DNA of 64,000 nt from Styela clava (lineage: Eukaryota). This document shows positions 17,570-51,434 of this stretch, one piece after another (the stretch's first letter is position 1; each line of letters opens with the position of its first letter). The position numbers were made by a program, and so were the translations under genes. The notes beneath the pieces were generated by a model. That model made no database searches. It was not told the DNA's origin and saw only the letters and a program-made list of their open reading frames with translations. The stretch spans positions 5,518,001-5,582,000 of the forward strand of contig NC_135261.1 of NCBI RefSeq assembly GCF_964204865.1, read 5' to 3'.

Positions 17570-18074
17570 TTTCGCCGCGTTTAATATTAAAAATCTAACA
17601 AACAAATGTAAAAATAAATGCATTGCATTCAAAGAATTAAGCAAATCAGAGTAAATTTAGTTTAAATTAATGTAAACATCGCAAATTGCACCTAAGAAGG
17701 GCCTTTTCTCGTGGCCCCCAAATAATTACTCCGTGGCCCCATGAGGGTCGATAAGTGGCGCAGGCAGAGGGGAGGGGTCGTAGTCCAAAATTTTAGATTC
17801 TCGTAGTTGTCATAGAGTGAATGTTTCACGCGATAGAAAATTCATTACACGCTAACAAAGTCGCCTTATTTAACGAGCACGTAATCGCGGCGATGCAGGG
17901 AAATATGTCTCAAAATTGTCGTATTGCACTCTTATCCAACTTGTCCCAATTGTATGAAGCACGCTTCATATGAATACACTAACCTTTTGCCAAAGTATTA
18001 TATCTATCCTAACCTAGAACATACCGTAAATTCCGCATTATATGCTTATATTAACCATTTGCATTGCTTATATA

Positions 18075-18280
18075 CAGGGTGTCCATAAAGTCCCTTCACA
18101 ATTCCAATTTTGTTATGAAGTCAGTTCTCAATATATCTTAACCAGGTTTGTTGTATTTTAATCAGTAATTGCTTAAGTATTTTTACTTCATTTAATACAT
18201 CTGTGAGAGCCAAAACAGTATATGGTATCGATAAATGGCCTTTGCAATTTTAAAATTTTTCAAGACATTATGGAAACCCT
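18075..18280. mobile_element. Tc1/mariner-type MITE
   Basis: TA|CAGGGTGTCCATAA...TTATGGAAACCCTA termini. Relatives at ~26032, 44045-44232 and 50370-50442. Confidence 0.6.
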
Positions 18281-21200
18281 AAATATATATATATATATAC
18301 TCAAACTCAGAACAGCGGGACAATTGCAGCGAAGGAGGAATATATTTTTCAGACGTAGTTAGGCCTATAAAGTTTTAGCATAAATACCAACCTTCAAGCA
18401 CCTTCTCATAACCAAACAATTAGTCAAACTAAATCTTTTTATTATAAAGAATAACCTGCCTGCTGAGATCGCTAATAGTTAATCACAATCTTGCGCCCTA
18501 TTCAGACCGCTCATAATTTTATAATTAAAAGCCACACATACAAAATGAAATGCCTCAATCAGAAAATTTGCATATTACACCTCTAATACCGTATATAAAA
18601 TATATCCCTCCAATTTCCCTCTTATATCTATTTGCAGGTAGCCATTCTACGCCATCTTTTACTTAGGTCGCTATCTCGTAGATAAGCGACCCGCATTCGT
18701 CACGTAGGCTTAATACGAAAGCAGGATGTCAAACAATGAAGAGTTAGTCACAGGAAACTATAGTCTATCTTGAATCTAATTTGAATCTATTCCAAACCTT
18801 TCGCGAACGCAATGCCCTGCATTACCTACTGACTGACTATTTTAATATGAAAGGGGTCACGGTCACGCACCACACGGCTTTGTGATGGTTTTTGCACGTT
18901 TTTACAAGGTTTCTAGTGCTTTTTGACGGTCGCACGGAGTTCGATACCCGGTCAATACAGAAAAAATTGCATTTTAACATCTTGCAAAATGTGTAATACG
19001 TTATTAGGTGAGCTATTTGCAAACAAATTCTAATTTCTGATACCTGCTATGTACTGTTGCCTTCTTGTGTGGAAAAATTTTTGAGGCGAATAGTGAGCTT
19101 AAGTATCGGAGTCTTGAATATAATAACGTTTTCACTTCTCAAACACGGGTCTAAAGCTTGGTTTAGGAACTGTCATTATTTTAGCAACTAACTCTTTCGG
19201 GGAGGTTGAATATTTATCAAGAGAGTGAAGTTTATCTGATATATTGCAACGTAAGGTTGAATGGGGGTAGAATTCATCCTTTGAAAAGAAAAGACGATGA
19301 GAAGATGGCTTAACCACATGGCGAACGTGCCACCAGACTAAGCCAGGTATGGATAAGGGATCCTATGCTCTACCCACAGACCTAAAATCCCCAGTGCGTT
19401 AAATTAGCTAGTGACTTTACTGTTCGTTCAAAGCAATTTTAAATCGAATTCGAATAAAACTCTCTCGTAGTAGTCATATTCATTCCAAGTACCTTACTCC
19501 ACACCTGACATGGGCAAATCCGGTCCGTTGGGTTAATCAATCTGTTGCTGAAACAACCTAACTAAGCCCAAATTTTGATGTTTCAGCTGAAAATAACTCA
19601 AAGAATTTGTTGAAATTGCGATTAAATTTAGTTTCGTCACGAGGTTTATTTTTTTCCACTTTTGCTTTTATAACTGTATTGTTCATGAAATGCAACTTTT
19701 TACGTTATACTCACATGGCCCGCCAGTCTAGGTGGGCCAAATTTTTGCCCCCTGGTCCAAAAACCTTGGCCACCTCTGCTCTACACCACAAGCACCTTAA
19801 CTATCAATTTGTTAAAAGCGCCCACATTACAAAACTCAACTCTATGGCCTGTTGAACGCCGATATATTCAGAACCTCAACAATACAACTCCCAAACCAAA
19901 GCGAAATTCTTCTGAACTTAAGAACAATAGGGAGACGTGTTATCTTTAGACGTTCAAATCTCGCAAAGCAAAGGTTTTATTTAATAACGTATCAAGTATC
20001 CTCCCTTTTACTGTATTTATTTATTCCAAACAAGAATAGGAGTTAACTATTGTATTTCATTGTCGACTGGCGGTTTACAGCGAGGTGTATTCTTAGAAAA
20101 ACATTCCCAAATAACTGTGAATTTATGGTAAACTTTTAGTTTATTTTAATTACATTTCCTGCGTCACTCGGAAGACGAAATCCAGCGATCGTTTGTAAAC
20201 GACTCCCTATGCTTTGCGACGGCTTATATAACAGCAACAGGAAGGTTGCCAGTTTGGTATGCGATCTCCTCGTTATAAAAATACTTTGGCACGTGATCTC
20301 ATTTGCTTAACGTGATCTCAATCTCATAAATACATTCTCATATAATTTCAGTTCCCAATCCTTTCATCGTTGTGTTCGAGTTAGTTTAGTAAATTATTGG
20401 GCGCTTAGTATGTTAACCAAGATGGCGGACAACGGAACATAGTATGTGTACCAGGTTAGGGTTAGAATATAATTTTATTCCAATTTTCCCTTTTTTAGTT
20501 CTATTACGAGTTTGGGGACTAGCCAAGTGACTCCCGTAGTATTTGTATCGGAAATTATGGCGTAACTCTAACCTGGTACACATACTACGTTCCGGTGTCC
20601 GCCATCTTGGTTCACATTCTACGGGAGTACCCATTATGGTTACATTGAATTTACGCTGGCTTTAACACATTTTAGTCATTGAAATATTATGGAATCGATT
20701 TAAATTAGAAACTAGCTATCGGATATTTTATTATATTTATTGTTAGATTGAATTAGAGTCGGCGATATTGCAAACTTTGTCCTCGAAAATATCTGGGCTT
20801 TTTTTCCTAATTCGTTACTTAGTGTCACCGAAAGAACATGACCGTCACTTAGGATCCTAGGAACATTGCTTCGCCTTCGCCGCTGAGTAAATGTTTTCTC
20901 AAATGCCACAAAAAACTTTTCATGAGTTAAAATAAAACAGCAAAATTTTAGATTGAATACCCAGTCCCACATTCTGCAATAATCTTTAGTTTAGTCTTAA
21001 ATCTAAAGCGCACTTACTAAATTACAACTTCAAAACACAGGGATCACGCAATCGCTCATATCGCATAATGAAGTGGCTTCAACAGGAAGTATTTGGTGAA
21101 CATGTATGGTCCTGGCATACGCCGGGTTATATTGCACCGTATAACTTTAAACTGTTTCTTCACTATCCTTGTGCCAAATTGCCAAATATATGGCTCACTA

Positions 21201-24001: not shown

Positions 24002-24845
24002 ATATAAACTTTCCAAACTGTGCAAAAACCTAAGTTTGAGTTGCGCATAATATAGCTTGTAATTCATTGGAAGAATAACCAATAAATTGATTTCTCCATA
24101 ACTAATAAGTCATTCATTTCAACTTTTTGGTATTTGTTCCCTTTTTTACATGATTTTGTTGTCACCACTGTACAGGGCAATTAATAGCCTCACTCCACCA
24201 TCACTGAAACCAACCTGACCTTTCCTGTTTAATTTGTGAAATAAATTTTGTAAAATTCAAATGCTATGCACTGACCAAATCCCAAGCATCCGGTGTTCTA
24301 TATTCAGAAATAGAATCAAATCTATAGAATTTGTCTAAATCCTAGTTTCTTGCTGAAATATAGCTCAACGTTTTCATATATTGCCGAGTTTGTTCTGCTC
24401 TGGGCTGGTTGCTTTACCCACTGATGTACAGTATATTCTAATTCACGCCTTCACATGATAAAGTAGCGAAACGTCTCAACAAATGGCCGAGCTTATTCTG
24501 CTGTGAGGTTGATTCACAAAGTACAGGCTGATCATTCTATGTTTATCAGTATCTTATCTAAAGGCCTACAGCTTGCTAAATAAATAGAAGGCCGTACGAC
24601 ACTTATAATACATTGTAACGAATTGCTTATTTAATTAGCATTTTGCTGTAATCATACTGGATGTTCATAATATAAATCTATAAAAATAACGAACAACTCG
24701 GGGTTCGGTGGTTGACGCATTGTGTTATGTCAGTGGTTCTCAAACGATGGGGCGCGCCCCACAAGAAGAGCGTAGGCAATTTTTTGAGGGGGCGTGAAGC
24801 TAATTAAAAATAAAAATATTTGTTAGATTTGATCTTACCCGCCTT

Positions 24846-25150
24846 ATTACTTATCGATTTTAATATCGGTAAGTTTGTTGATAGGTATTTGTCTGTCTGT
24901 ATGTCTGTGTGTTAGATGCACGCGATATCTCACGAAAGCGAAGTTGAATCTGCTCCAAATTTTGCATGTGCATTCATCATAGCTCGGATCAGAAGCCTAT
25001 TGATTTTGGATGGATTTTGTCTTATGATTAGCGAGTTATTATTTAATTAGTGATGGGACACACGGTGTCACTATGGAGTAAGACCACTGTTTTGGGGGAT
25101 CCCCTAACCTTCGATCGATGGGTCTCCGGTTTCTAACCGATATTCTAGTT
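24846..25150 (+). mobile_element. Second DINE/HINE-like family, nested in a hAT MITE
   Basis: (GTCT)n microsatellite near the 5' end, 3' hairpin CGGTTTCTAACCG followed by CTAGTTT, inserted in a T-run without TSD. Confidence 0.55.
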
Positions 25151-25923: not shown

Positions 25924-28900
25924 CTCACTAGGCTCAGGATAAAAATATCAAAATCTAAATTAAATCTCTTCTCCGTAAGATAGTCCTTAATACGACTTTA
26001 AACTTTATATCATATTGACAGTTAAGTAGTATAGGGTGTTCATAAAGTTCCTTTACATTTTACAGTTTTGTTGTGAAGTAAGTTCTCAATATAAATTTAC
26101 CAGGTTTTGTTTTATTTTAGTCAGTGTTTGTTTAGACTTTTTTTGACTTTACTAAATACACCTTTATATGCACATTATGAGCTGAACGAATCACACCTTT
26201 TTACCTAATTTGATACAGGACATTTTGTTTGCCTACTTTACATCAAGTTGTATAAACGGACTAAAACCTATGGGCAGGGGGGATATTCACTTTGCTAACA
26301 CAGAAAGTCCACGAATTCGTAACTAAAATAAAGAAAACTGGAATAAAATTATGGCCTAACCCTGAACTGATACAAATACCACGGGAGTACTCCTTTGCCT
26401 GTATTTCTGACTCGTTAGTCCTTTCACTTTTGCGAATCCTGTTCCACGTTGCAGATGTTGATACGCGCCAAAAGTTAATATTTAACTCAATAACGAGTTA
26501 CAGTAAATTCACAATCGAACATATATGATCATTATGTGATTTAAACCAAATATATTCACGCCGTGCTAGGTGACGTATCACACAAAGACAAATATTTGTC
26601 GTTCTATTGTACCTATGGCGTCCATGTATAGTTGAATGGCCCGCAATATCAATATGTGATGTGTGTGATAAATAAGTCCGAACGTGCCGACGGGGGAAGG
26701 GGGTATGGATAATTTGCAGTCACGTTTCAAGGTACTATGGCGTTGTATTATAAGTTAAAGCTTACTAACTTATTTTTAAATCTAAGTTAGATGTGAAACT
26801 ACTTTTAAATTCTTTATGACGTAACAGTACTTTTCCAAAAATTATCGGATAATGATTATGATGTCATGAATCCTCAATTTTTAAGTGGTGAACGAAACCC
26901 TGCGCACAAAATTGTGTAGTCAACACCGAACAAAAAAAGATTCGAGGGCTCCCAAACAAAAAAAAGAGGCCTTCCAAATGTATAACCTCCGTACTTATTA
27001 GTAAGTGCTTCCCCGGGGCTCTGTTCGGGGTGATAAAGTTGTGAAAGCGATTCGAAACGAAATGGTTGTGCCACGCTAACTAGAAGTACTTACGTCGTGT
27101 TGTGATCATGGCACCAAAATTCGAATTTGAATTACAGATTTTATCTAATATTTAAAAAACTCTCAAATCGCTAAATTTGACTCAAATTAGACTAATAAAT
27201 AATATTCAGTAACATATAAACGTGTCCGTAAAATTCGCCGTAGGAAATCTCGCCGCAGGAAATTTCGCTGCATAGGGAAATTCGCAGCATGAAAAATTGC
27301 CGCAAGAGCATTTTGCTGTAAAACAAGTATTTGTGATAAAAACAGTTAGCTTTATAGGGTTAGGGTGCTTTTGAATAACGAATCAATTTTAGGTAAAAAT
27401 GTACTTCAAAAACCTAACTGTTTTTATCACAAATACTCGTTTTACAGCAAAATGCTTATCCGGCGAAATTTCCTGGGGCGAGATTTCCTAAAACCACATA
27501 TAAATCCTGTTAAAAGTTTCCGCTTTTCCAAATGCTACGTTCAATTCATTACTTTCAAACACTCTTGAGTCTATAAAAACACAACGGGGTGACAATAGTC
27601 GCTTCCCGGATACAAAACTTCAAGATAACTTTGTCTCGCTCTTGAATAAACTACTTTAGCTCATAACAATGAAGAAATCGTTCGTATCATATCAAAATGA
27701 CGCAATCATGAATTGTTGTTACAATTGCTTATATCAGACAATAAATCGGACGTAGGCAATCTACGGCCCGCGGGGAAAAGCCGGCCCGTTGGATAATTCA
27801 ATCTGGCCCGCCTGATGCTGCCATAAATGTCTGCTTAACCAATTTTGCATGCACTTAATAGTTTTTGTTATTGAAATCTGTATGGCGCAATAGGCTTGTT
27901 AGATTAAGATCATAGTCAGCGATTCTTGTATTTTAGGTTAACACAAACTTATTTGGACCTCCTGAAATATGCGCACCAAGATGGCGCACAACCTGAACTC
28001 AGGTTGTGTACCAGGTTGGGGTTCAGGTTGTGCGACATCTTGGTGCGCATACTTCAGGAGTCCTTGTCGTGTGCCGTCACGCACAGCCCTGAGTTTCAAG
28101 TTAGTGCCGATAAAGTTTTTTTTAACGTCCCCATAAGTCGTAACGCTCTCCTAGCGGTATTTTTTATTTATAGCTTACCTATTCTTGCCATTCTGTTCAT
28201 AAAATGTAACTATTACGTCACAGTTAGTCTACAACGCCCGCCGGTCTAGGTGGGCAAAATCTTTGGCCCCTGGTTCAGAAACCTTGCCCTTCCCAACAGT
28301 GTAAATTGACTATAAATTTCATTTTTGAATTGTTTACTGACTGTATTACGGACCACTCATTTTACCTGTGTCGGATGTTTAGCAAGTATCAATCTTATTT
28401 ACTGGCGTGACCTCAATTATATACTGCAGTATTACTACTGCCTTTTTTGTTACACACATGGCTCGTGAAGTAAAGTTACTTTGATCCTGATTTTGTAGTT
28501 GGTTAAAAAGTCATAAATTGCGAGACGAATTTATTTATATTACAAAACCTTAATTTTCGTTATTATATGAACCTCTGCACAGATTCGATCCCGCGCAACG
28601 CCAGTATGTTCCCCAGCTTCCAAATTTAGGGTAAATATTGTTAGTATTAAACTATTTTAACTTATAAAAATGTGTTATGTATTCGACTGATCATCTTCAC
28701 CGGCATATGAGGCACTTTCTGTATATTCAAACACATTTTTATTTACGTTAAGAATTAAACCATGGTGTCACACCTGAAAAATAGGGAATGGGAGGGGGGG
28801 GGGGGCGTTCACCCTCCATAGAGGGTGGGGAAATCACTGACGCAACCTGTTGCGCACAGATCTCCGCAATAGTTAAAGCCGACTCTGATCTTTGGTTGGA

Positions 28901-29634: not shown

Positions 29635-31136
29635 ACTGTGGCCTGACAATCAGTTTTTATCATGTCTGCACAGCACTCCGAATTCCATTTTTTGAAAATT
29701 CGGCTGCCGAATTCGCGGGGTTTTTCAACCAGTCTATTCAAATTTCTTGAATACACCAATGCCAGCACAACATTAGGAACTTTCAATTGTAATTTCGACT
29801 TCCAAACTTCAAAAGATTTTTAGGTTGACCGTAAGCTCAATAATATGTGCTGAAATAACTGACGCATAAACCAATAAAACAATTCGAAAAATCTAAACCA
29901 GGGGTGTACAACAGGCGGCATACGAGCCACATCCGTCCCGTAAAGCCTTTTAGTGAAGCCCTTGTCGACACTCAGAATTTTGCCAATCAAGCAGAAAATC
30001 CTATCCCGACAGCTTACGTTGGAAAAGGCTAAAATGGATTAAAATACATATTTCGCTGCGTTAAATCTTTCGCCGTTTTGTCCGATGCCATTATTACTGT
30101 AAGGCTGTAAGCCGCATTCTTTTGACTTCTCTTCCCGCTAAATATTTTGTGTGGCCCAGCTAGATTAAGTTGATTATATGGCCCACCGACGAAAAATGTT
30201 GCACGCCCCTGGTCGGAACCCTGTGTACCCTGTGTTGATCATATAGTTGTGGATTTACATATCGCACTGGTGGTTTCCACCAGGAGTGTAGGCAGGGAGA
30301 GGGTATGCACAGCGTTTACAAACTGTGTTCCGCGGAACACTAGTGTTTTGCGAGCGTCTTCCGTTTATTCGGTGAATAAGAGATTAAAATTACGACTAAA
30401 TTGGTCGGCACAGCGATCTTGTTCAATATCGCGTCACCGTCTTCCTAAAGAAGACTAACTTTTTGAACACGTAGTGGGCATAACAACCGTTTCGGTATTT
30501 TTGTTGTTCTGATGCTTGTTCTTTGACACGTTTTTAAAAAGTCGCTTTTCTCTTCGATTACTGGACCAATATCTTTGAAATTTTCAGTGGTTGAGGATGG
30601 AATTTTTCTCCAAATGAATTTGATATTTCGTCCAAAATTTTGCTGTATTATTATTATTGCTAGTACAGCGCCAGGGGCCACAAAGCCACAGCGCCAGGGG
30701 CCACAGAAACATTTTCAGATAGGCCACAACTCTATTAAAATTGTTAGACTTGATAAATATGTTTGTCAACTTTGATTTTATATATTAGAAATGAATGATA
30801 TGCCACACATCAAGGGCCGTATTCTGAAAAGGAACTTGAGCACCCAGTCGGACTTGACTTGGACGTGAGTTGGACTTCGGTGTAAAATGGGTATTCAGAG
30901 ACCAAACTCGAGTTTCGAGTTCGAGAAGAGCTCAAGTTCAGCTTGAGGGGCTTCAAGTACGACCTGGAGTTGGCTTGGTATTCAAATACGCACGAAGTAG
31001 GAAATTAAGATACGAATTTTGCCATTTCGAGTTGGAACCTCGAGTCTGGTCAAGGGCTGCTTCGACATCGTACTTGGGTATGGCCAAATCGCATTGTAGT
31101 GTTCGGTGAGTTGTGGCCAGGCAGATAGCATTGAAA

Positions 31137-32261
31137 ATGGATGTGTTATATGTCGCAGAAGTTGCGGAAATTATCAGACGGCATACCGGACCTCGTAGAT
31201 ACTTGAAAGATCAACAAAATCCACTTGAGATTTTGACCGATGTACAGTTTGTTGATCGTTACAGACTCACAAAAGACGGCGTAGTAAACTTCATGGCTTT
31301 TTTACACGAAGATCTAGCGAAAGTCAACAATAGGGGTTCGCCGCTACCGCCACTATTGAAATTCACCGTCGTGCTCCGTTTTTACGCAACTGGGTGCTTT
31401 CAGGTTGTATCGGGAGACCTTGAAGGAGTTTCCCAGCCAACTGTTAGTAGACTGGTGAAGGAGGTTAGCAGAATCATTGCAATAAAACATGATGACTTCA
31501 TAAAATTTCCCACCAACCCACAAGATGTTCGAACGCAGGCGATCAAGTTCTATCAGAAATCTGGATTTCCAGGCGTAGTTGGCGCGCTGGACTGCACTCA
31601 TATAAAAATTCAGTCTCCTGGAGGTCAGCACGCTGAACTGTTCAGAAACCGTAAGGGTTATTTCTCCATTAACGTTCAAGCGGTGTGTGACGCGGACATG
31701 CTACTCACGGATGTTGTCGCGCGCTGGAGAGGTTCAGTTCACGATGCTAGAATTTTTGACAACAGCTCTTTGCGGGAAAAGTTTGAAAACAGCACATATA
31801 CAAATATGCTGGTGGCGGACAACGGTTACGGATGTAAGCCTTACGTTATGACGCCGTTTCTGACACCACGATGTGTTGCTGAGCAAAGATTCAATAAATC
31901 ACTGATAAAATCTAGGATCACTATAGAACGCACTTTTGGTGTTTGGAAAAGGGTCTTTCCTTGCCTTTCTTTTGGACTACGCACCAAGATTGATACCACA
32001 ATGACAATCATTATTGCGACTGCTGTGCTGTACAACTTTGCAAGGCAACAAAGGTAAAAGTGAATGCAATACATTAGTAAATAACTCAGACAACATATTT
32101 CAAAACGAAATCATTTATTTAGAATCATCACTGACGACTATTATGCAGAGATACAGGATAACAATATTTCAACAATTATGGTAGGACCTCAAGCTCAAGG
32201 CAACAATGTCGCTGGCTTAGATAAAAGGAGGCAGATTGTGCAGAGCCATTTTACCCGTTGA
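31137..32261 (+). CDS. Harbinger (HARBI1-like) DDE transposase, 2 exons, 351 aa
   Basis: Exons 31137-32053 and 32123-32261 (GT-AG, phase 2). Motifs LRFYATG, VSQPTVSR (HTH), GFPGVVGALDCTHI (D), NRKGYFSINVQAVCD, GSVHDARIF, ADNGY (D), IERTFGVWK (E). Exon 2 ends GLDKRRQIVQSHFTR*, a typical Harbinger C-terminus. Confidence 0.93.
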
Positions 32262-32460
32262 ATACTGAAATTATGGAACGGTTGAAGGTCCAAATACCAA
32301 AAAAAACAAAAATTTAGGCTTATTCATGTGATTTCTAAACGCAAACATATGTAAACAGTCAACATTGAATTCAAATAAATGTCCAATTTTACAATGCAAT
32401 AATGTTTTAGAATTTTAGATGCTACACTGAGAAGACAAAAATCAGAATAATGTATGAGAT

Positions 32461-32807
32461 CAGGGGTTCCCAAAGTTAATTGACCATGGGCCGCAATTAT
32501 AAGGATAGTTGCGGACCAGAAATAGCAAAAAGGAAGCGAAAGCACGGCCGGGGTTAAGGGCGCACTTAAGCGCCCTGAGAAAAATTTAAAAAATAGGCTG
32601 TAAGTTTAATTTTAGATACGCCTAGACAAATCGCATAAGTGATATTTTTAAAGAAATGAGAACACTGCCAGTGTCTTTTTTCAGTGTCGCAAGAAGGTAA
32701 AAACATAAGTGTTAAACATATTAGTATCTATTTACGATTAAAGTTTTAACTGTTAAACTATTATGCGGGCCGTAACTCTCCCCCAGGCCACGGTTTGGGA
32801 ACCCCTG
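32461..32807. mobile_element. hAT-type MITE nested between the two Harbinger genes
   Basis: CAGGGGTTCCCAAA...TTTGGGAACCCCTG termini; degenerate 8-bp flanks. Confidence 0.7.
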
Positions 32808-32863
32808 TTCTAGATGCTACGTAGGGAACACAAAAATCACCTAGCTCCTGTCCTATTAAAGCA

Positions 32864-35011
32864 CTACTTTTCAGAGATTTCAGAACGGTAAGCTGCCATC
32901 TTTGCCGAATGTTCCTCTTTTAAATAACGTATCTGCAGCTCTAGCTTTCTAACTTTCAAATCATGTTGTATCTTCTGGCTCTCTAATAAAAAGCTTTCCA
33001 GATCAATACTCGAACGCTTTCTGCCCGAATAGGTTTTTGGTTTCTGTTTTTGGCTACGTATATTTACCGCTGGGCTCTGAAGAGACATCAATGTTTGAAT
33101 GCTTTCTGAATCATCAGCGCTGCTTATGCTGTTGTCTTTGCTTGTACTGTTGTCTAACATATTTTCTATTTCTGGAAATTCTCTACACTCAATCTGAATC
33201 ACTGTTGGCAGCGTGTTTCCATCAATTTCTAAAATGTCACAGAAAAGTTTATGTGAAAAAAGCAACACAAAAATGAGCTATGGTTAATAACCATTCTGGG
33301 AAAATCCGCCGAGGAAATTTTGCCCTATAAGAAAAATCGCTGGATGAAAAAAGAATATACCATAACCCTATCAATCTGTTTTTTTAATCACAAATACTTG
33401 TTTTACGGCAAAATGCTATTTTTTCTATGGGACCAAATTTCCTGTGGCGAAATTTCCAGACACGATTAAAATCAAACCAACGGTTCAGGAAATAAGCTAA
33501 AAATTCTTCTAGTCAAAGTAATAAAAGAACATGGCCAGTTCAATTCTGCATAATATCAAGCATTAGAGTGTCAAAATCAGTGCAGATGTAGAGTGATAAA
33601 TCTGCCCTGCAACATACCAGGCATGGTGAAATCTTCCACAGAAAACATGTTTGTGTCACTGTCAACGTCATTGTACAGTGGGTCGAATTGCTCCGGAATC
33701 ATACCATAAATTCTGTGGGATAATTCATCTGCTATATTCTTAGATGGTCCCCCTCCTGTAGATCGTAGACTCTTCTTCTCTTTAAGCACAGCAACCTTTG
33801 CCCTTTTGAAAAGATATAAGATATTTAGATTAGCTTTCAGAATGTGAGTTAGAAATGAAAAAACAAAAGTTTGCATAAGGATATCATGAATAATATTATC
33901 GGGTCTAGTGAGGTAAACGCCGTAACTGCTTAAATAACGCCTAATGAAATTGTGATGTGAAATGAACGCCGTTATTGCTTAAATAAAGCCTAACAAAAAT
34001 GTGATGTGAAATATTAGTGTAAATGATATAAATTATATCCGTATTGTCTAAAAATGTTGACGACTTATCTGCCCCTCATGCGCCAGGTTGTCCACCTTGG
34101 CTTCCATTTGTGCCAAGCGTTTAGCGTATTGTGTTCGTGCAAGACTGACTTTTATTTTCAGAAAAATATGAAATTTGGGTTGTATTTTCATACCACATTT
34201 TTGTTTGGCGTTATTTAAGCAGTTACAGCATTCATTTTCACACCATATTTGTGTTTGGGAGTATCTAAGCAGTTACGGCGTTTGCCCAAAGAGACGCAAA
34301 TTATCTGTGCATTCATTCTTGGAATTTTGGTTGTTTTCCTATTTGGCAAAATATTTAAGGTTCAAGATAACAGATCCTTCTCTTATTATTTATCTCAAGT
34401 TAGGAACGCTTCGTGAGTTTATTAAAACTTATCTTCTCACTTCCAACAACATAAAAATACAAGAGCTTAAGAAGTACAAATTATCTATCATTAGGTACTC
34501 TTTGCGACAGCATATCAAATTACAAGCAATGAATCAGTACACTTTCTTATGTTATGATAAGCAGCCTAGAACCCATGCGTTTCAAAATAATTGACTTACT
34601 AAAAGAGAAGGATGATAAAGAGATAATATTGAAATAAGAATATATATATTTCCAAACAATCATTTACTCTCTATATAAAACTGTTTTTACAATCGTGCTA
34701 TGCAGCATTTTAGACCAGCTATGTTGAGTTACTTTTCTTAGCACCATAAACATATGGAACACAAACCGTGACTTCATATTCATCCAGCATTTCTTCAATT
34801 GCTTGGCAGTGTACTTTTTCACATCTGGTAGAGCATTGAAATGATCTGTTATTCCGGCCCATGCATTACTTTTGTTACAAGTTGCATTAATATCGTTTTT
34901 CTTGCTTTCAATTATTCTGATTTGGGGTTCAACCAAATTGACAAGATTAATTTTTTCATTATCTGTGAATACAATCCGTGGTACAGTCTGTTTTTCAATA
35001 GAATCAGACAT
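32864..35011 (-). CDS. Harbinger accessory Myb/SANT-like DNA-binding protein (MSANTD/NAIF1-like), 3 exons, ~264 aa
   Basis: Exons 35011-34767, 33802-33618, 33228-32864, with consistent phases. FTDNEK..L..LV...IIESKKND...KSNAW..I...FN...QLKKCW.NMK trihelix domain, followed by the STGGGP motif and a C-terminal coiled coil. Alternative ATG at 35023. Confidence 0.88.
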
Positions 35012-35596
35012 TGCTACACACATTAAAATAATCCTGTAAAAATAAACAGTCAAAATAATCCAGTCTGGTCTGAAAGCAAGCATAACTTTGAAATCGCCAA
35101 GTGAACCCAATTCGTACGTTAATCGAGCCATACTGGTACCGTACCGTAGGACCTACTATATACTGCAATTATTAGTGAGATGATATTTTACGATTAACAG
35201 TAAACGTAACCAGCGCCGTAATACAATACGGTACTACATCTGTACAACGAACGGCTGCGCCATTCAGCGATCCCTTGGAGTCCACGTTTCTCGGTACCTC
35301 GCGACCCTTCCCACCAGAGCGCATCATTTTCTCAGCCAATGAGGATCGCGAATTTATGCAGAAGACTCAATGACCCGTAACGTATTTTTGAGTCCAACTT
35401 GAAATTTCGTACCACTCGAGTAGGCCTGGAAAACCGTTCTTGAATACCAAATCAGAACTCGAAATCAGCCGAACTTAAGCCGTACTCGAATGAAGCTTTT
35501 TTGGAGTCGTACTCGGACCTTGTTTCTGAATACGGGCCCAAGTCTCGTGCGAACAATCGTGACTTTTTTTTATTTCAAGTCAACTACGATTATCCA

Positions 35597-35604
35597 TCAC
35601 GTGA
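35597..35604. promoter_or_regulatory. Palindromic E-box (TCACGTGA, CLEAR/USF-like) in the putative promoter of the FKBP-psi/CCNQ/SCARB2 cluster
   Basis: ATCACGTGAT in a CpG-containing stretch ~60 bp outside the Harbinger right TIR, upstream of three plus-strand genes. Promoter role is inferred. Confidence 0.35.
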
Positions 35605-36139
35605 TTACCGCGGCGTTAGTTTTCATCGTTATCATCTGGCAGTCAGGCGCTCGTTTCAAAGGCAGAATTGCGTAGTTTTATTCCAATAGAATAGGACGAT
35701 TTATTTTTTTGACGAGTGTTTAATAAAAGATAGTTCAACATGAATGCTGTTATTGCTGATTTGCGATGTAAATCAACTCTGTACGTGTAATTCCGTGTCC
35801 TGGGGTACCGGTAGTGTGGGTAGACGGATGGTCGCGTATAAACTCTGAAACTAGGTACCGGTACGGTACCGTACCGTACTATACTACGGTACCGGTACTG
35901 AATTACGATATATTTACTGAACTGTTCGCTGTTGCAGGCTGGGTACCAGTACGGTACGGTGTGTCTGTGCGTGAGCAACATATCTGAATACAATAGTTTA
36001 AAGGATATTTATTACCACTTTTTGATTTTCCTGCATGAGAATGCTGGAATGAGGCATTTCAAATACCTGCAAATGACTACCGTATCGCTTCATATGAGAG
36101 CAAAGCGGTAGACTGGTAGAGCAGACGTTTTATCAATAT

Positions 36140-36486
36140 TCTGATATTGAAGTTCTTGCGCTGCATAGGCTATAGGCAAATCTTATCAAAAGAAGGGTCA
36201 AAAAGTAAATTTTCACTATCGGTACCGGTATAGGCTGGTACAGGCACTTTCGCTAGTGGACAAAAGTTTGATTCATCAAGAGGCCGAAGACAACCACTAT
36301 CTGACCGGATTGGTCATGGAGAAGTTATTCATGGATGGGAAGAAGGAATCCTAAAGATGAGCATTGGACAAAAAGAGCAAAGCTGATTTGCAGGTCTGAC
36401 TCAGCTTATGGTGAATCAGGTTATCCAGGGGTGATCCACCAAATTGCACTCTTCTGTGTGATTTGGAATTACTAAGCATTGGTTAA
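36140..36486 (+). pseudogene. FKBP1A: Intronless FKBP12-type peptidyl-prolyl isomerase pseudogene
   Basis: Frame-corrected translation DIEVL..GKSYQKKGQKVNFHY[20-nt insert]TGTFASGQKFDSSRGRRQPLSDRIGHGEVIHGWEEGILKMSIGQ[fs]RAKLICRSDSAYGESGYPGVI[fs]PPNCTLLCDLELLSIG* aligns end to end with FKBP12 (VHYTG, KFDSSRDR, EVIRGWEEG, AYG, GIIPP, ELLK). At least three frame-breaking lesions. Confidence 0.9.
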
Positions 36487-37663
36487 CTGTTCAGATTCCA
36501 ATGATTCATTTTTGCAACAAATTTTGACTTCAAATATTCTAAGTTGGTCCATGTATCCTCAAAATCATAATATTTGTTACATGACTAGACATTGCAGTCT
36601 AAAAATAGGAAATTCAAACATATATCGAATCATATTCACTATCTTATTGTTGTATGCATTTGTTTTCCAGTGATCAGTCATTTGAATTTCAAATCTATTT
36701 TCAAAAATCTGCCCTGGGATAGTGGATTTCATTTTCTAAAATATGGTAGACCAGAAAATTCTTAAGATAGGACTCTTTCAATTCTTGATAATTTCAACTT
36801 CAGTGCAAGCAGGGCTGGAGAGCTGGTTCGAAATCATATTGGCTCCATCTCACATTATATTCAAACTGTGTTCCCAGCTCAGGCGCTTCATTTTTCTATG
36901 TTCAAATGACTCTTTAACATTAAACAAGGATCCACTGAAAGGCACTGAATAGCTTTCCAGTTTGCCTAAGATTTTAACACAGTTTATTATAAACACCACA
37001 CCATCACAGCACTATTTTTTTTAGTTGGTCCAACAATTTTTATCAGTCATTTAATGTTCGAACAAAGTCTTCATTCAAGCGACCTGTTTATTCTAATCAC
37101 CATTTTCCTTTACCATTTGCAGTGTTATTCCTACAATCACTTCATTTTCTTGTTACACATAAAATCGATGCTCTTCATCTGTATGACCCCTCTCTAAAAT
37201 AAACTCATTGTTGTCACTGATATTCATAAATTTATTTATTTAAAGTTATTGCCCGATTCTGTATCGTGTATTTTTGTTTTATTGTGTAATTTGACTGTTT
37301 TTTTTTTTAACTTTTTAAGTTATGCCCGTCCTCTGTGTTTTGTGTTTATTCGTTTGTTATTGTTTTTGTTTTGTTTTATACCAGAGCGGTCGAAATAAAA
37401 TTGATTGATTGATTCAAAGAAAGTCGTACAAACCAAAACAGTCAAAACACATGCTTCTGTGCTTTGAGAATTTAGGAAACGCAAACTAACAAAACCAAAA
37501 ACTTTCAAAATTTCAAAACAAGAGACTACTTTACTGCCTTCGTGGCAGGCAAAGAAAGTTTTTTGCGCGGCAGCAAGGGCTGCGCAAAATACAAAATATC
37601 ACAAATTCTGCAATATCTTAATATTACTTTGCATTTACAGAATTTAATGCTGTTTAAATAAAA

Positions 37664-38389
37664 ATGGATAATAGTGATGAAAAGTCAACAAACTCAAGGA
37701 AGAAAGACAAAGACTCGCTTTTGCATTTTAAAGTTTCGAGATTCATCATTGAGTCGTCAGCAAAGTTGAAACTGAATTCAGTAACTTTGGCAAGTGCTTG
37801 TGTTTTATATCACAGATTTTACCAAGAATGCGAAATAGAAGATTATGATCCCTACACGATCGCTGCAACTGCTATATTTCTTGCAACAAAAATAGAAGAA
37901 CAACACACCCGACTTCGTGATGTTGTCAACGTTTGTCATCGAACTCTATTCCCGAGTAAACCCTTGTTAGAAATTGGACGGGAACTATATGATTTGAAAG
38001 ACACAATTGCTAATTGTGAGCTATTGATATTACGAGTTTTAGAATTTAAAGTCACTTGCGATCACCCACATAAATATATCTTACATTATTTAATGTCACT
38101 CTCTCAATTTTTCAATAGAAGAGAATGGGAGAGACATACCGTTGCACAAACTGCTTGGGCAATACTTCAGGACTGTTATCATGGGACTATCTGCTTATCG
38201 CATAGGCCACAACTCGTTGCTATTAGTTGTATTTATTTAGCGCTACTAACATGTAAAGTTGAAGTTCCGTTGAAACATTCATGTAAAACTCCATGGTGGA
38301 AAGTGTTTCATTCAACAGTTTCGAAACATGAAATATCGACTGTGATGGATGAAATAGTAGACTTGTATAATTTGGAAAAACAGTGTTGA
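37664..38389 (+). CDS. CCNQ: Cyclin-Q (FAM58A/cyclin M, CDK10 partner), single-exon CDS, 241 aa
   Basis: HFKVSRFIIES..KL..VTLASACVLYHRF, YDPY.IAATAIFLATKIEEQHTRLRDVVNV, ELLILRVLEF, HPHKYILHYL, AWAILQDCYHG, PWWKVF match cyclin Q. Splice acceptor TTTACAG 23 nt upstream of the ATG. Confidence 0.93.
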   Translation: MDNSDEKSTNSRKKDKDSLLHFKVSRFIIESSAKLKLNSVTLASACVLYHRFYQECEIEDYDPYTIAATAIFLATKIEEQHTRLRDVVNVCHRTLFPSKPLLEIGRELYDLKDTIANCELLILRVLEFKVTCDHPHKYILHYLMSLSQFFNRREWERHTVAQTAWAILQDCYHGTICLSHRPQLVAISCIYLALLTCKVEVPLKHSCKTPWWKVFHSTVSKHEISTVMDEIVDLYNLEKQC

Positions 38390-40106: not shown

Positions 40107-42204
40107 ATGCCGAAGTGCGTGATAGCAAGTGTTTTAGTCGGAATTGCATTGGTACTGGGTGGTGTCGTTCTTCTTGTTGGTAAATACCCGGAAAAAATTA
40201 TCGATTCGGAAATCAACAAACAATTAGCAATTTCGCTGAATTCACCAGAATTTGATGACTGGATGACCCCGCCCCCACCTATCTACATGCAGTATTGGAT
40301 GTTCAATGTAACGAATCCGGATGCCGTAATTGCAGGACAAAGAGCAAATTTGACACAAATTGGACCTTTTACATATCGATTGTACCAGCCGAGATATAAC
40401 GTCGCTCTATACACGAATAACACTGTCTCCTATCAGTACAATCACACCCTTGTGTTTGTCAAAAATATGTCATGTGCCGACCCCCATAATGTCACAATTA
40501 CGAATCTAAACGTGCCATTACTCACTATTGCTGGAATGCTGAAGAACATGCATATACCTGCTTTTATTTCTAAAAAAATAATAGAAATATTCAAAGACAG
40601 CAAGGTATTTCCGCAACACACAGCCTATGAATTGCTCTTTGGTTACAATGATTCACTGTTAAGCTTCGCCCATATGTTTATTCCTTCATTTCCGGCAAAG
40701 TTTGGACTTTTTTACGGTTTCAATAACACAGACGATGGAGTATATCTTGTGAACAGTGGAAGGAAAGACATATCTCTCGTAAATAAAATGGAAAAGTGGA
40801 ATTTCAAATCCGAATTAGATTATTGGTCCGATAAATATGGCAACATGTTAAACGGTACCGATGGTGTCTTTTTTCATCCTGACATGAAGATAACAGAAAC
40901 GATCTATGCTTATTCAACAGATATTTGTCGTTCTTTACCGTTTAAATATGAAATGAACACAGATGTTCGAAGTATCTCAACATATCGTTATCATACAACT
41001 GCAATGGCATTTGCAAATTCCACTGTTAACCCTGACAATGGAGCGTTTTGCGTTCCGGCTGGAAATTGCATGGGGTCTGGAGTCTTAAATATCAGCGTAT
41101 GTAAGGATAATGCACCAGTCGTTATTTCCTCTCCTCATTTTTACTTGGGTGATCCTAAATATGTTAACGGAGTTATTGGACTTAAACCGAATAAGACTTA
41201 TCATGAAACCTACTTGGATATTGAACCTACTACTGGCACTGTATTAAGAGCAAATAAAAGATTACAGGTATGCTGAATTATGCAATGATTAAGTATACTA
41301 ACGCTTGTTGTGCTGCAGTGCTAATAATTGCGACATTGTCGCTGTATTGACGGGTAAACACTGAACTTTGCCAGTGACGTCAATGATACTGGTTAATTAA
41401 TTGCATTTAGCAAATAGCAGTTTTGATTACTGTTCTGGCATTCTGAAATGATTTGAGTCAGATACGATTGAAAGTAGTTATGATACTACCCAGGTTTCAA
41501 AATTTCCACAAATCACTACCCTATATTGATATACCCTATATTTCGCCTACTTTACATCAAGTTGTGTTCAGGGACTGAAACTTATGAGCAGGGTTTATAT
41601 TCATTTGGCTAACACAGACACTCCCCGAACTCGTAATAAAATTTTGGCCTAACCCTAACCTGCTACACACACCTTGGAGGTACCAAAAAATTTTGAACGC
41701 ATGAGCCATTTGAAAAACAACTGTTTTCGACTTATAGTTGACAAAAATTTGGCTGCCATCTCCTGACCCCAGGTTAATTTTGAAAATATTGATTTGTACA
41801 TATTGACGGTCACGGCCCGTGACCCACAGAAAAACGCTCCATGGGGCCCACAAGAGGGCAGAGGCCTTAGTTTGAGAAGCACTACACCATTTCTCAAGAC
41901 ATTTTTTTCTCTACAGCTCAACATCCAACTTGAAGCTTCAGAATACTCGGATGATCTAAAGAACGTTAGAACAACAACATTTCCGTTTGTGTGGCTGAAC
42001 GAAAGTGTCACAGTTGATGTGGATTCCGCAAATCATCTAAAACAAGTCCTTATGGTGAAGCAAGTCGTGTTATCCACCCCTTATATTCTGTTTGGCATCA
42101 GCGCTCTTATTTTTGTGATTATAATAATCGTAACAATTCACAAAAATAAAAAGAAAGGAACCCCACTTCTCACTAATGTTGATTATGATGAAGATGAGAA
42201 TTAA
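40107..42204 (+). CDS. SCARB2: CD36-family scavenger receptor class B (SCARB2/LIMP-2-like), 2 exons, 482 aa
   Basis: Exons 40107-41267 and 41917-42204 (phase 0). N- and C-terminal TM helices; motifs W..PPPPIYMQYWMFNVTNP, GPFTYR, LLFGY.D, MLNGTDG..F.P, DICRS, SSPHFYLGD, YLDIEPTTG, KRLQ|LN, FPFVWLNE; many N-glycosylation sequons. SCARB2 versus SCARB1/CD36 orthology cannot be resolved by eye. Confidence 0.88.
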
Positions 42205-44885
42205 TTTAATTTGTTAATGTTTCTTTATTTACTCTAATTTGTATAATTATTTTCTGCTTTTTCTCCATTTTGACCCTTACTTTAATAACTAGCTGTTTGC
42301 ATATGGATAGTGTGTCATTAACGAAAAAAAATTTTTCTCTAATTTTAAACATGTACATGTATTATACTCTTGAAACTGGCCCAGTTGTTCCGAATCTTTT
42401 CTATATATTCCTCTCTTCAAGCCTATTTTTGTGCTTTTTTGTTTCCGTTATTTGATCAATCTTTAAAGCAGTTCCCAAACTTTTATTGCAGGGTGGCCCC
42501 AGGTTGCGCGGGCCACAAAATTATTTTTGCATTGTTCGCGGGCCACAATAGTGCCAAGATTTTTGATTACTCTTCGAATGTGACGCGGGCCACAGATAAT
42601 GAAGCGGCGGGCCACATGTGGCCCGCGGGCCTGGGTTTGGACCACCTTGTTTTATTGCTATATGATCTTCTCTTTGTCTATTTTATATCTCTATATTCCT
42701 CCCTCTCTACACATCGTTTGTTCGATATTTAAAGGATTCTCGCTATTGTTATGTGTAATCACACTCTAGATTTGGCACAGTTTGTATAGTTTATAAAATT
42801 ATAACATGTCATTGCATATGTATTACAATTCACAATAATTCTGACCAAACAATATTAGTAAATATACACGGAATGCAGCGTAATGTATCTGTATTTTCTC
42901 CTCAATTACGATATTACCAGAGGACGAATTCCCGGTTTAAAAATGCTGCTATATAGGTAATGGCCAATTTCTTGTTAACCAAGACATATTGGATTTAATA
43001 CTTCTTTGTGCGTTATGTTAAATATCAATCCCCACGCAGAATTTTGTTTCATAAAGAAGCTGTCCTGCCAGTACAAAATTTGTCAAAGCGAAGTTTTGAA
43101 GCCTTAATTTTTTTTTCGGGGGGGGGGGGGGGGGCATTCTGTTCTGCTGCTCTCCTTGCTACTGGAATATAACAAATTCATTGAGGATATATCCAAAAAA
43201 TTGTATCATTTCTTTTCATGAACTGCTTTACATCGGCTCATTCATTAACCTACCTAATTTTCTGAAAAATAACATATGTTTATTAGTTAAATTTAACTGA
43301 TTTTTTGACTGCTTCCTTCTGCTTTGGTGCTGAAAAAAGAAATTTTCAGTCCGGCATTTGGCATCTCAGTAAAATTCTAATAAGAAATAAAAATTCTAAC
43401 GGCATTGACCACGCTGAAGAATGTGTTGTAGGTTATTTTTGCTTGCGAGTAATCATGATTTTTCCGGCGTATCAAACGGATTTGACTCACATGATGTGTC
43501 GGTGCCCTCAGGCATGCACTTGCAACGAAATCCAGACTGGGTAACACTACAGGCCATGTTTTGAAGACGTGTTCCATTATTAGCTCATGCTTGGTTGTGT
43601 CGATGTTTTCGTACCATGTTTGTTATTGGCAAGCCTGCAATAAATCTTTGCAACTCACTGTTTTTCTGTAATAGTAATGAAAAGCTGTTTGGTATGATTT
43701 TTTTGTTTTTGATTTGTTTTTTAGTTATTTAGCTTCATTGATTATTCCTCTTTCTGGGTTTTTTGTCCTATATATGCAATAAAGAAGTTTTCTTTTTCAT
43801 TTGTTAAGAGCATAAGTTTTGGTATATCACTCAGCTACTTTTAAGTCGGACCATTTCTGATATAAACCCCATTGTTTTTTCTGATTCATTTCTTTTTTTT
43901 TGCTTTTGCAGTTTTTCATGATGTAGTTATTGAGAAAATTTATGACTTCATCGTATTATACTGTTTGTAGCTTGTATATTTAAAAAGTGAAAAATATATT
44001 TTATGTTCGTTGTTTCACTGCGGACTGGCGAACTAAATAATATATAGGGTGTCCAAGTCCATTTACAATTTTGTTACGAAGTCAGTTCTCAATATATCTC
44101 AACCAGGTTTGTTGTTTTTAATCAGTATTTGTTTAAGTATTTTTACTTCATTTCAATTGGGCCAAAACAATATACGGTATAGATAAATTCCCTTCGCAAT
44201 TTCAAAATATTTTAAGATTTCATGGACAACCTATTTTCTCAGAATTATATCAGTGTGAGCAATAGATGTCTATGTTGAGCAAATGTGTTACCAAATCTCT
44301 GCAGACCTAGCCAATCTACACAGATCACTGGGGATAAGTTCTTGGTCACGGACCACAAAAAATTATCAGATAAACAAAATTTTCACTAATCCCAAATTTC
44401 GAATCTGGTTCACGATGTAGAGATGTCAAGAATAATTTATATGTTTGGAACTAGGGCTTGGCATTCCGAATCGAATATTCAAATTGAATAGTAAATTAGT
44501 TGAATCGGTTAAGAGCAAAATTTCGAATCTATGCCGTTTTGTTTTTTTCTGCCATTGGTATTCGATACGATTCTGCATTTACCAGGTATTCGAAAATGCC
44601 CAGACCTAGTTTGAACACATTGGACATTGTGCAATTTCCATGACAGTTTAGACTAAAATGTTCCATTATATGCTTTTACTATGAAAATGGCTCATCTGTA
44701 TTTTATTGATTGATAAATTGTTTTTGTTGAAAATATGAAAAAAAAATGGAAAGGTTTTGTTTTGTGAATTTGTTATGTGATCAAAGAAATCAGAATTTCA
44801 TGCTGAACGTATATAATTGAACAAGACAGCAATGCTCAATTCCAGAGGCGCTAAGGTTGCACATTGGTACTAGCTAAAGTGACTG

Positions 44886-48900: not shown

Positions 48901-51434
48901 GCGTTTGTAATCTTCTCTGATAAAAAAAAACGTTTATGATGTCCAGAATTACTCTTCGCAGCTTGTCTGCAATTCCAGCTTTCCAAGTGAGCAAAACTTC
49001 TTAGATATAAGGATTATTTTTTTTCGTTACAGGCGCAAATAGGAAGGTACTACACGTAAAGAAAACGCCGAGTAGCAAAAGCGAGCGGAAAACGGTCGCG
49101 AAAGGCGACGAGAAATATGTGCATTGGAGCGTATCATGAAATACAATCTTTCGCCTGTAGCCTTATGGAGTGACGTCAGAGTTGCCTATCATGTTGTTTA
49201 ATGTCATTGGTTTGATATATTATTACGTTTTGCTCTTCAAGTCTTGAACATCTCGAAATAGTAACAGATTTCTCACATTCAAAGTACAGAGTTTATTTGT
49301 TTTGTCAAACAGAAAACAATAACACGACAAAATATAATTGTATAAGCAACAAATTCTCGGTATAGACTGTATAACAACTGGTATCAATACTATCATGTCG
49401 ATATCGAGATCAGTTACCAGTACCACTCAATATTTATAACGTGAATAACAAGAGCTTTAAATGTGATAAGACATCTAGGATGTGATATTGTATGTTTGTC
49501 TGAGACCATCAATAACTTTCAATGGAATAATAATTTAGTTGACAAGCGTTTGGGATGCTCTAAGCATTAACTAAATATACCTAGATATAAATTCAGACAA
49601 ATTATTTGCTTGATCAATTATGATATTAACGAATTTGACATTTTTGATTAATGACTAAAATAGGAAGAGAAGGTTTTCATGTGAGTGTGTGGCATTGGTT
49701 TCTTTAAAATATGTAAATGGTGAATGACTCAAAGTAACGGTTATATAGGGGCATTGAAACGTCACTGCAATAGTCAAGTTGTTCGAGTGTTAAAGTTCGG
49801 ACCAACAAAGCAGGTATAAAAAAGCAATCATATCAAAATTGAGCTTAAATGTTTTCGTATGAATAAGGTCTACAAGCATCATGTAAAATATCAGGAAGAA
49901 TACTCATGTTAGAATGTAATTTACACTGTTTTTTCATTATTTTAGTTTAAGAACCGAATTCTATGAGAATGTCTTTAACTACGTGATAACTTGATGTCGG
50001 ACTCAGACTCGAATCGAAGCTTGGATGATCTCGACTTGATTCGTGGTTTGATAATTACCAAACAGTGAACTGCGCGGTATGGGTGAGATATCATACTGAT
50101 ACTTGGTGAAACGCATGTCTGTGACGTGTGTGCATAGTGACACGAGGGGTAAAGACTGCCAGAGAAATTCCAAGGGTATGTCATTTTTTGCGTCCGGAAA
50201 GAATAATTTCAATAAAAAGTGACTAAGAATCAACAAAATATTAAATGATGTTGGGTTAAAGGACATATAGGGTGTAAGGACATATAGGTTTAAAATTGCA
50301 GAGGGAATTTACCAATGCCATTTAGAGATTTTGTCTTCGCAGATGTATAAAATACTTGAACAATTACTGATTAACAAACAACAAACCAGGTTAAGATATA
50401 TTAAGAACTGACTTCATAACAAAATTGCAATGGACACCCTGTATTGTTTCAATAGTTATGAGAAAAGCAAAAAATATTGTTGCGTTAAAGTGTCATTTTT
50501 GTATTATGTGTACCTACTCAATTACAAACATGAAGTGAAGTTCTGTAGAGTGTAGACCATGTCAACAGACGTCGCGTAAGATCAATTCCGATTATAATTA
50601 CCCAAAAGAATGAAGCTCCGTAAACGTCACTAATGCCCTATTATGACTCCTCGAACATGTTTAGTCGAGACTGGGCTTTTAACAAAACACAAATAGACTA
50701 ACAACAAATAAATAGTTGTCTTGATAAAGTTTCCATGGAATGTGGTTTAATCAGACAATCTTCTCAGTCACATCCCGAATAAATCTACGTTCTTTATTTT
50801 CAGTAGTAAACAACAATCATTGGTCACTGATTAGAGTGAGATAGAGATTACAGTATCTTTGTTTCTTTATTAAAAATGACAGCTTCCTCCCCTTGTGTTT
50901 CTCTTTGATACTGCTCATTTTTTTCTCTTTTGACCTTAAAAAAATATTTGGCGCGCGTGCCGCATTTCGGCTCAGGGCGTGGTAGTGTGAGGTCGTTTCT
51001 GCGCTGGTCTGAGCTAGGTAAATTCACAGTTTAAGGCAGGGAAGGTCGAGATATAACTAGGTCAACTAATTATTCCCATTCTTCATGCATATATAAGCTA
51101 TAACTTGAATTGTATAAATAATAATCTATTCCGATACAATTGGGTAGCGCCTTTTTTCAGCCATATGCAGAATTTGAGTGTTATATGACGAATATAGATT
51201 TCAGCATTGAGTTCTTGTTTCATTTCTTATATACCTTTCGAGTGTATTTATTTACGTGTTTTGCAACGTTTTTCTTTATGCATCAAGTCTTGTTTTATGA
51301 TAATTTTTTTTGTGAGTTGTAATCCGCGACAACGTGCTGTTTATAATTTTTCTACTTTGCACAAGAACTTTGTATCATCGCTAAAAAGTATCATCGCTAA
51401 AAAGTAAGCCATAACTATAATTTTCAAATTTCAG

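Follow-up and report, generated by a model that had tools for sequence, protein, structure and literature searches.

Pogo-family elements insert at TA and duplicate it, Tc1/mariner elements leave by a staggered cut after which end joining retains a few terminal bases, and single excision footprints are textbook knowledge. For Tc1 and Sleeping Beauty, the passages of PMC2874221 on excision describe end joining that yields TA, terminal bases and TA, and PMC3520976 names taCATGta a Tc1 footprint in one of its passages. According to excerpts of PMC9976928, fish Passer, a member of the pogo superfamily (DD35D), inserts at the TA in the centre of AAGTACTT, shows in human cells a preference for start sites and the 5' ends of active genes, and leaves 0–4 bp upon excision. 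Table S1 of that paper lists a Passer of Styela clava (2320 bp, 4 copies, 1 intact) with ends TCGTA/CCGTA and TA/TA duplications, and a table taken from PMC7386202 contains CCGTA- and CCGTG-ended TA elements of Botryllus and Ciona savignyi. In Phytophthora, the motifs M93 (TACATGTA) and M94 (TACCGGTA, abundant in promoters) count as high-confidence promoter motifs in excerpts of PMC3597505 and are interpreted as factor-binding sites. A footprint origin of TACATGTA was raised and rejected in favour of a factor in PMC3520976, whose passages on this motif describe no allele test.

The window analysed here comprises 64,000 nucleotides of S. clava (NC_135261.1, 5,518,001 to 5,582,000) and contains modules, words in which TA stands on both sides of a 1–4 nt spacer as in the excision footprints of IS630-Tc1-mariner/pogo elements. 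One of them is the same 8-mer as M94. Modules with the spacers CCG, CGG and CCGG are probably excision footprints of a CCG-ended, TA-targeting transposon of the pogo superfamily (Passer or Fot-like), a reading from sequence comparison whose probability we put at roughly 0.7. They would work like a Tc1/mariner-type footprint and fit Passer in ends and target. With Passer they share, as far as the excerpts of PMC9976928 and PMC7386202 go, the TA target, the CCGTA ends, the GTAC-centred consensus and footprints of at most 4 bp, and perhaps the gene-start bias; however, what these papers present there are single events in cell culture and lists of elements, whereas the modules would be stacked natural scars. 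The succession of TA, terminal bases and TA also resembles the product described for Tc1 and Sleeping Beauty (PMC2874221, passages on excision), but those elements end in CA(G), whereas the module letters here are CCG, with CATG close to chance (2 observed vs. 1.4 expected). Like microsatellites, the tracts are of low complexity and show some slippage indels; unlike microsatellites, they mix units, occur in both orientations and gain new units at lone TA sites. Stacked, self-reinforcing footprint tracts near gene starts did not turn up in a literature search at the level of titles that covered few subscription journals.

Module words in the window

TACCGGTA occurs 8 times in the whole window with 0.5 occurrences expected and ranks first among 692 TA-N(1-5)-TA words, and TACCGTA/TACGGTA occur 17 times (4.9 expected). 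Among the 15 TA-x-TA spacers tested, clear enrichment was confined to CCG/CGG and CCGG; CC, CG and CATG gave none that was clear, and TA-CAG-TA was weakly enriched (16 vs. 10). A stretch of 1.2 kb holds 13 of the 25 CCG/CGG/CCGG modules of the window, and none of 20,000 random placements was as tight. Local dinucleotide shuffles of 35100–36300 yielded 0.32 such modules on average (n = 2000, maximum 4) compared with the 13 observed, which confirms the clustering described in an earlier note on this DNA. Outside the cluster, where that note has the modules only scattered, CCG/CGG are not enriched (8 vs. 4.8, P = 0.11), but TACCGGTA still is (4 vs. 0.5, P = 0.002). In three paralogue comparisons within the window, for the modules at 44173 and at 8749 and for TAGGCCTA at 59755, the differences were substitutions and not module insertions.

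The same note had counted GGC among the modules. TAGGCTA/TAGCCTA are found 4 times in the window with 4.6 expected and TAGGC/GCCTA 4 times near the cluster with 1.6 expected (P = 0.08, local shuffles); the GGC triplets belong to the gene's own glycine codons (Gly11, Gly13 and Gly29 of the FKBP12 frame discussed below) or to a 10-nt tandem duplication. A GGC-ended element as a source is not supported, while for CCG, CGG and CCGG the footprint idea gains a candidate element in S. clava, a matching target preference and allele evidence from other eukaryotes.

Three modules lie within a Harbinger transposon near the 5' end of its Myb gene and the others outside of it (Table 1), so that the group at 35135–35235 belongs to the element and the group at 35805–35960 does not. 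Because Harbinger has GG ends and a CAA duplication, it was rejected as the maker of modules and is the host of one cluster only. The element appears to be complete, with a split Myb/SANT gene and several other repeats nested inside. For the Myb protein, the start given in the database (35131) is well upstream of a likelier one at 35011.

Table 1. Features of the window discussed in the text (positions of the window)
Feature	Position	Strand	Basis or remark
Harbinger transposon with GG ends and a CAA target duplication	30814..35538	.	Ends and frames
DDE_Tnp_4 transposase frame in Harbinger, uninterrupted, 315 aa	31110-32057	+	Reading frame
Harbinger Myb/SANT gene, first coding stretch	34664..35152	-	100% identical to S. 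clava P0003, 82 residues queried
CpG-rich stretch, putative promoter region	35001..36000	.	CpG observed/expected; function inferred
CACGTG, CCAAT and TATAAA in the CpG-rich stretch	35598, 35683, 35837
Chain TA-CCG-TA-CCG-TA	35137..35148	.	In Harbinger, immediately 5' of Myb/SANT reading frame
Single TA-CGG-TA, inside Harbinger	35227..35233	.	Module map
Single TA-CCGG-TA	35806..35813	.	Word count and module map
Longest chain, 4 modules, TA-CCGG-TA-CGG-TA-CCG-TA-CCG-TA	35856..35878	.	Read from sequence
Chain TA-CGG-TA-CCGG-TA	35885..35897	.	Module map
Probably decayed chain TA-CCAG-TA-CGG-TA-CGG-TG	35944..35961	.	Read from sequence; decay inferred
Single TA-CCG-TA, upstream of FKBP copy	36078..36084	.	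Module map
Lone Passer-like end, TA followed by CCGTAAATTCCGCATTATATGC, partner not found	18022..18045	+	By-eye comparison with published ends
FKBP12 pseudogene covering codons 4-108 plus the stop, lacking a start codon and any long intron	36143..36486	+	Protein alignment
First lesion, net +5 nt, codons 10-12 replaced by 14 nt	36161..36174	+	120-protein profile
20-nt insert between Y27 and T28 of P0001	36220..36239	+	Alignment to closest protein
Cyclin reading frame	37664..38389	+	Acceptor-like TTTACAG 24 nt before ATG

The spacers correspond to terminal bases of a resident element by way of the CCGTA end of S. clava Passer in the published table (PMC9976928). The earlier note had suggested a search for TA-duplicating transposons whose termini begin with CCG(G) or GGC; no complete CCG-ended one was found in the window, where 0 of 47 candidate pairs start with CCG, but the listed Passer offers such an end. 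The TACCGTA at 18022 is probably the end of an element instead of a scar. In the window, module flanks follow Passer's GTAC target consensus: at isolated modules, the TA has a G in front of it in 12 of 34 cases compared with 17% for other TAs (P = 0.009), an excess to which decayed modules that went unrecognised may contribute.

Under the footprint reading, a CCG-ended element would insert at TA with duplication of the TA and would later be excised by a staggered cut, with end joining keeping a few terminal bases. Joining of 3-nt CCG overhangs across a central mismatch would give TA-CCG-TA or TA-CGG-TA, and pairing of the overhangs through their terminal CG would give TA-CCGG-TA; by our own derivation, CCG overhangs would predict exactly the three enriched words. 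With a C at the start of each module and a G at its end, scars would rebuild GTAC on both sides and could stack, each scar being a better target for the next visit. Passer's bias towards active gene starts would accumulate them near promoters and in introns, and slippage would contribute some tandem copies. In simulations of the emptied region, the four-module chain had a P of 0.013 with uniform choice of TA and of 0.15 with a GTAC preference (weight 3 per matching flank). Chains could also have been lengthened by slippage, another possible origin of the tandem pair in Harbinger.

The FKBP12 copy and its two lesions

Four frameshifts interrupt the FKBP12 copy (+5, +20, +2 at 36372–36373 and −1 at 36436). 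Among 17 candidates its frame matched only P0001, an FKBP1B-like protein of S. clava (XP_039272530.1), with 87 of 96 residues identical compared with 60 for the next best of 120 FKBP12 proteins, and 10 changes in the 288 nt of codons 13–108 suffice to encode P0001. The frame is contiguous over codons 4–108, with no clear poly(A) tail in the sequence, and because it is unbroken across codons 13 and 66/67 the copy looks like a processed pseudogene. The alignment to a functional FKBP12 that the earlier note had proposed, carried out with P0001 at the protein level, bears out its insert and defines it as 20 nt; between Y27 and T28, all 120 FKBP12 proteins in the alignment are free of insertions.

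Less of the interpretation given to this insert stands. It had been parsed into three footprints, but a tandem duplication accounts more simply for its final 10 nt: these and the ten bases that follow the insert (CGGTATAGGC / TGGTACAGGC) are identical at 8 of 10 positions with both differences C to T. Most simply, the insert would then consist of about 10 module-like nt (T-CGG-TA-CCGG-TA) placed at the TATA of the parent (CAC TAT ACA) and of a 10-nt duplication that copies the gene's Gly29 codon, although any parse of the 20 nt requires one or two secondary changes. At its frequency in the window outside, TACCGGTA would occur by chance in such a stretch with a probability of about 0.001. One or two events would have hit the TATA of codons 26–28 in an already processed copy, and an ordinary 10-nt duplication would then have enlarged the insert. 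A role of the inserts in killing the gene, as once suggested, is unsupported because the copy looks processed, has no start codon and carries four frameshifts.

The 20-nt insert alone could alternatively be the remnant of a parent intron (GT...AG, 36222–36243), as this stretch starts with GT and ends with AG before G/GC and as the lesions lie at codons 13 and 29, which we take to be phase-1 intron positions of vertebrate FKBP1A. We consider such a remnant quite improbable: codon 13 is crossed with +5 nt only and no GT, codons 66/67, where several truncated database proteins break off, are crossed unbroken, and a 22-nt intron together with the loss of two Thr28 bases would be demanded, yet ACA is intact after the insert.

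The second lesion that had been described, near 36166–36176, is real as a net gain of 5 nt. Upstream of it the frame compared with P0001 alone ranks 189 of 127960 and is not significant; homology ending at Gly13, the conclusion from this comparison, was rejected by the 120-protein profile, which ranks DIEVLA 5 of 127960 and 5 nt off register. The TA-GGC footprints that had been seen here are not supported: the two GGC coincide with near-invariant glycines, Gly11 (in 120 of 120 proteins) and Gly13 (in 119 of 120), and the lesion, which contains a 7-nt repeat (CATAGGC/TATAGGC), is no clean TA-x-TA event. Codons 4–9 (36143–36160) differ from P0001 at 6 of 18 nt, far above the remainder and with conservative amino acid changes only, and the 5' end of the true parent, or its N-terminus, may therefore differ. 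The degenerate FKBP pattern matched 0 stretches in metagenome contigs.

The module chain in other eukaryotes

An 18-mer chain of the window recurs in at least 119 stretches of metagenome contigs, and a 16-mer has 13 matches in viral contigs. We sorted 118 loci into 95 groups and dropped 8 as coding (stop-free frame of at least 200 aa through the seed), which leaves the 18-mer with at least 87 groups of non-coding loci from other eukaryotes; by their proteins L043 is ascomycete-like and L054 diatom-like, and many loci may share an organism. Another module follows within 150 nt in 66 of the 87 non-coding groups compared with 1 of the 8 coding groups. Near the seeds CCG/CGG (117 observed vs. 11 expected), CCGG (53 vs. 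1.2), CC/GG (116 vs. 30) and CAG/CTG (35 vs. 6.6), the latter the counterpart of Tc1-like ends, are enriched, as are CG and CCAG, and all 6 spacers enriched at P < 1e-5 have C first or G last. Orientation is balanced across loci (CCG 151, CGG 167), neighbouring modules are unlike in 432 of 593 pairs and identical in 161, and at isolated modules a G stands before the TA in 185 of 354 cases compared with 25% for other TAs. At L020:2095, a chain is flanked by TAGCCTA words, so that some other organism may have spacers of the GGC/GCC class, which is not enriched in the window.

All-against-all alignment of the loci gave 34 clean indels, some counted in two pairs and four with long compound spacers: 14 TA-x-TA non-tandem, 5 TA-x-TA tandem, 3 other duplications and 12 other. 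Mere slippage of existing repeats, which the earlier note had set against its idea, does not describe these alleles of other eukaryotes, as 14 of the 19 TA-x-TA indels are not tandem duplications that copy a neighbouring unit. Of 15 multi-member groups, 2 were excluded as coding, L017 for its low complexity and L036 as a repeat family, and the 11 unique-flank groups left contain 8 clean indels of at least 2 nt (4 modules, 3 tandem duplications, 1 other). The 4 module indels (L015/L038, L043/L058, L074/L076 and L110/L111, alleles 98–99.8% identical) are non-tandem and contrast TA with TA-(GG, CCG)-TA. Their combined probability is 1.7e-9 under random 4–6 nt deletions and 1.4e-6 under microhomology deletions, with a module set picked post hoc, and 3 of the 4 are one base away from a neighbouring 4-5-mer. 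In the L017 group, one module is present in L018 and absent from its closest relative and from a more distant one (L017, L035); this event probably was an insertion. The allele evidence consists of pairs from other organisms, mostly unpolarised; for S. clava the empty TA is implied by the parent protein. Passages of PMC7540406 give a heterozygosity of 1.72% for S. clava along with a large share of DNA transposons, and such heterozygosity makes an allele test in this species feasible.

These indels bear directly on a simple-repeat origin, in which tracts would have grown by slippage from a chance palindromic TACCGG, one-base losses would have produced CGG and CCG, and microhomology deletions the allele differences. 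The tandem pairs at 35137–35148 and at the end of 35856–35878, the identical neighbours in 161 of 593 pairs, the module-type tandem duplications (5 of 34 indels) and the duplicated second half of the FKBP insert agree with such growth. As the main origin it is unlikely, since lone modules stand at TA sites free of a template (L043/L058, L017/L018), the FKBP parent frame has no such unit, and the enriched spacers are confined to words with C at the start or G at the end across unrelated eukaryotes.

A 126-bp TA-flanked element (L110:167-292) with 18-nt perfect inverted ends starting CTTGTCC is absent from L111. It sits 8 nt from a chain, and such tracts therefore do receive TA insertions; its ends read CTT, not CCG. 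No CCG-ended TA element, complete or as a full-element allele at a module TA, was found in the window or the 118 loci. L018 holds 113 modules in 4.4 kb, and in L018 and L091 many introns, not the 5' ones alone, are filled with modules and exons are largely spared. A transposon-free process that cuts at TA (templated end joining, or a meiotic or domesticated nuclease), duplicates the TA and adds C/G-rich bases would suit both the missing element and the density in L018, which would otherwise require very many transposon visits. We judge it very improbable, as it would not fix the letters to CCG, CGG and CCGG, the ends of resident elements. The intron-containing genes at L018:2562-3047 and L091:672-1355, whose introns are packed with TA-x-TA modules, give weak DDE_1 (pogo-type) matches and are possibly domesticated or intron-rich pogo genes.

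Promoter link and meaning of the words

That the cluster lies near a promoter, as the earlier note had it, is suggested by CpG richness. With modules masked, CpG observed/expected is 1.3–1.5 for intervals starting at 35001–35501 and 0.87 at 35751; across the window the median is 0.99 and the 90th percentile 1.33. The cyclin frame is a possible owner of the putative promoter. In 11 of 15 other loci, the seed is located 5' of the closest frame with Pfam confirmation (P = 0.06; the Pfam scan covered 80 of 102 listed frames). The DNA around the 12 modules outside the cluster is not CpG-richer (P = 0.2), and no modules were found upstream of the CD36 frame at 40107. A link between modules and promoters is plausible.

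Transcription-factor binding sites maintained by selection near promoters would also place the words in CpG-rich DNA, and the standing of M94 and M93 as Phytophthora promoter motifs (PMC3597505, in part) and the preference for a factor over a footprint in passages of PMC3520976 point in the same direction. Nevertheless, this origin is highly improbable in our view, given that it leaves unexplained the new module in a dead frame, the x+TA allele differences and the module-packed introns. Later co-option as factor sites would be compatible with a footprint origin.

Self-reinforcing footprint tracts may be a widespread form of mutation: in tunicates, diatoms, fungi and oomycetes, TA transposons would write their end letters into accessible germline DNA, with every scar improving the target for the next, a generalisation to which we give slightly less than even odds. 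The abundant promoter words TACCGGTA and TACATGTA would then record, like fossils, where the germline was accessible and which transposons have vanished, which we likewise propose tentatively. If true, some common promoter motifs would be mutation tracks and not protein-binding signals, and transposon scars would be among the hits when motifs are sought in many invertebrates, algae, fungi and oomycetes. The spacer spectrum would name formerly active elements, even vanished ones, scar density would show where the germline was open, and the scars would be raw material for new regulatory sites. The identity of the two promoter words would become testable with existing resequencing data.

Three further observations concern the surroundings of the cluster. 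At 36001–37250, over the FKBP copy and the DNA downstream, CpG is strongly depleted (0.23–0.41 observed/expected) next to the CpG-rich stretch; this depletion may stem from a methylated parent or may point to transcription of the region. The cyclin frame and the CD36 frame (40107–41276) run over 241 and 389 residues without an intron. Small repeats starting with TA-CAGGGTG/TA-GGGTG (18070–18281, 44040–44233, 50289–50444, 26030–26163) and with CAGTGG (13903–14147, 24725–24848) are likely mariner-type and other miniature elements.
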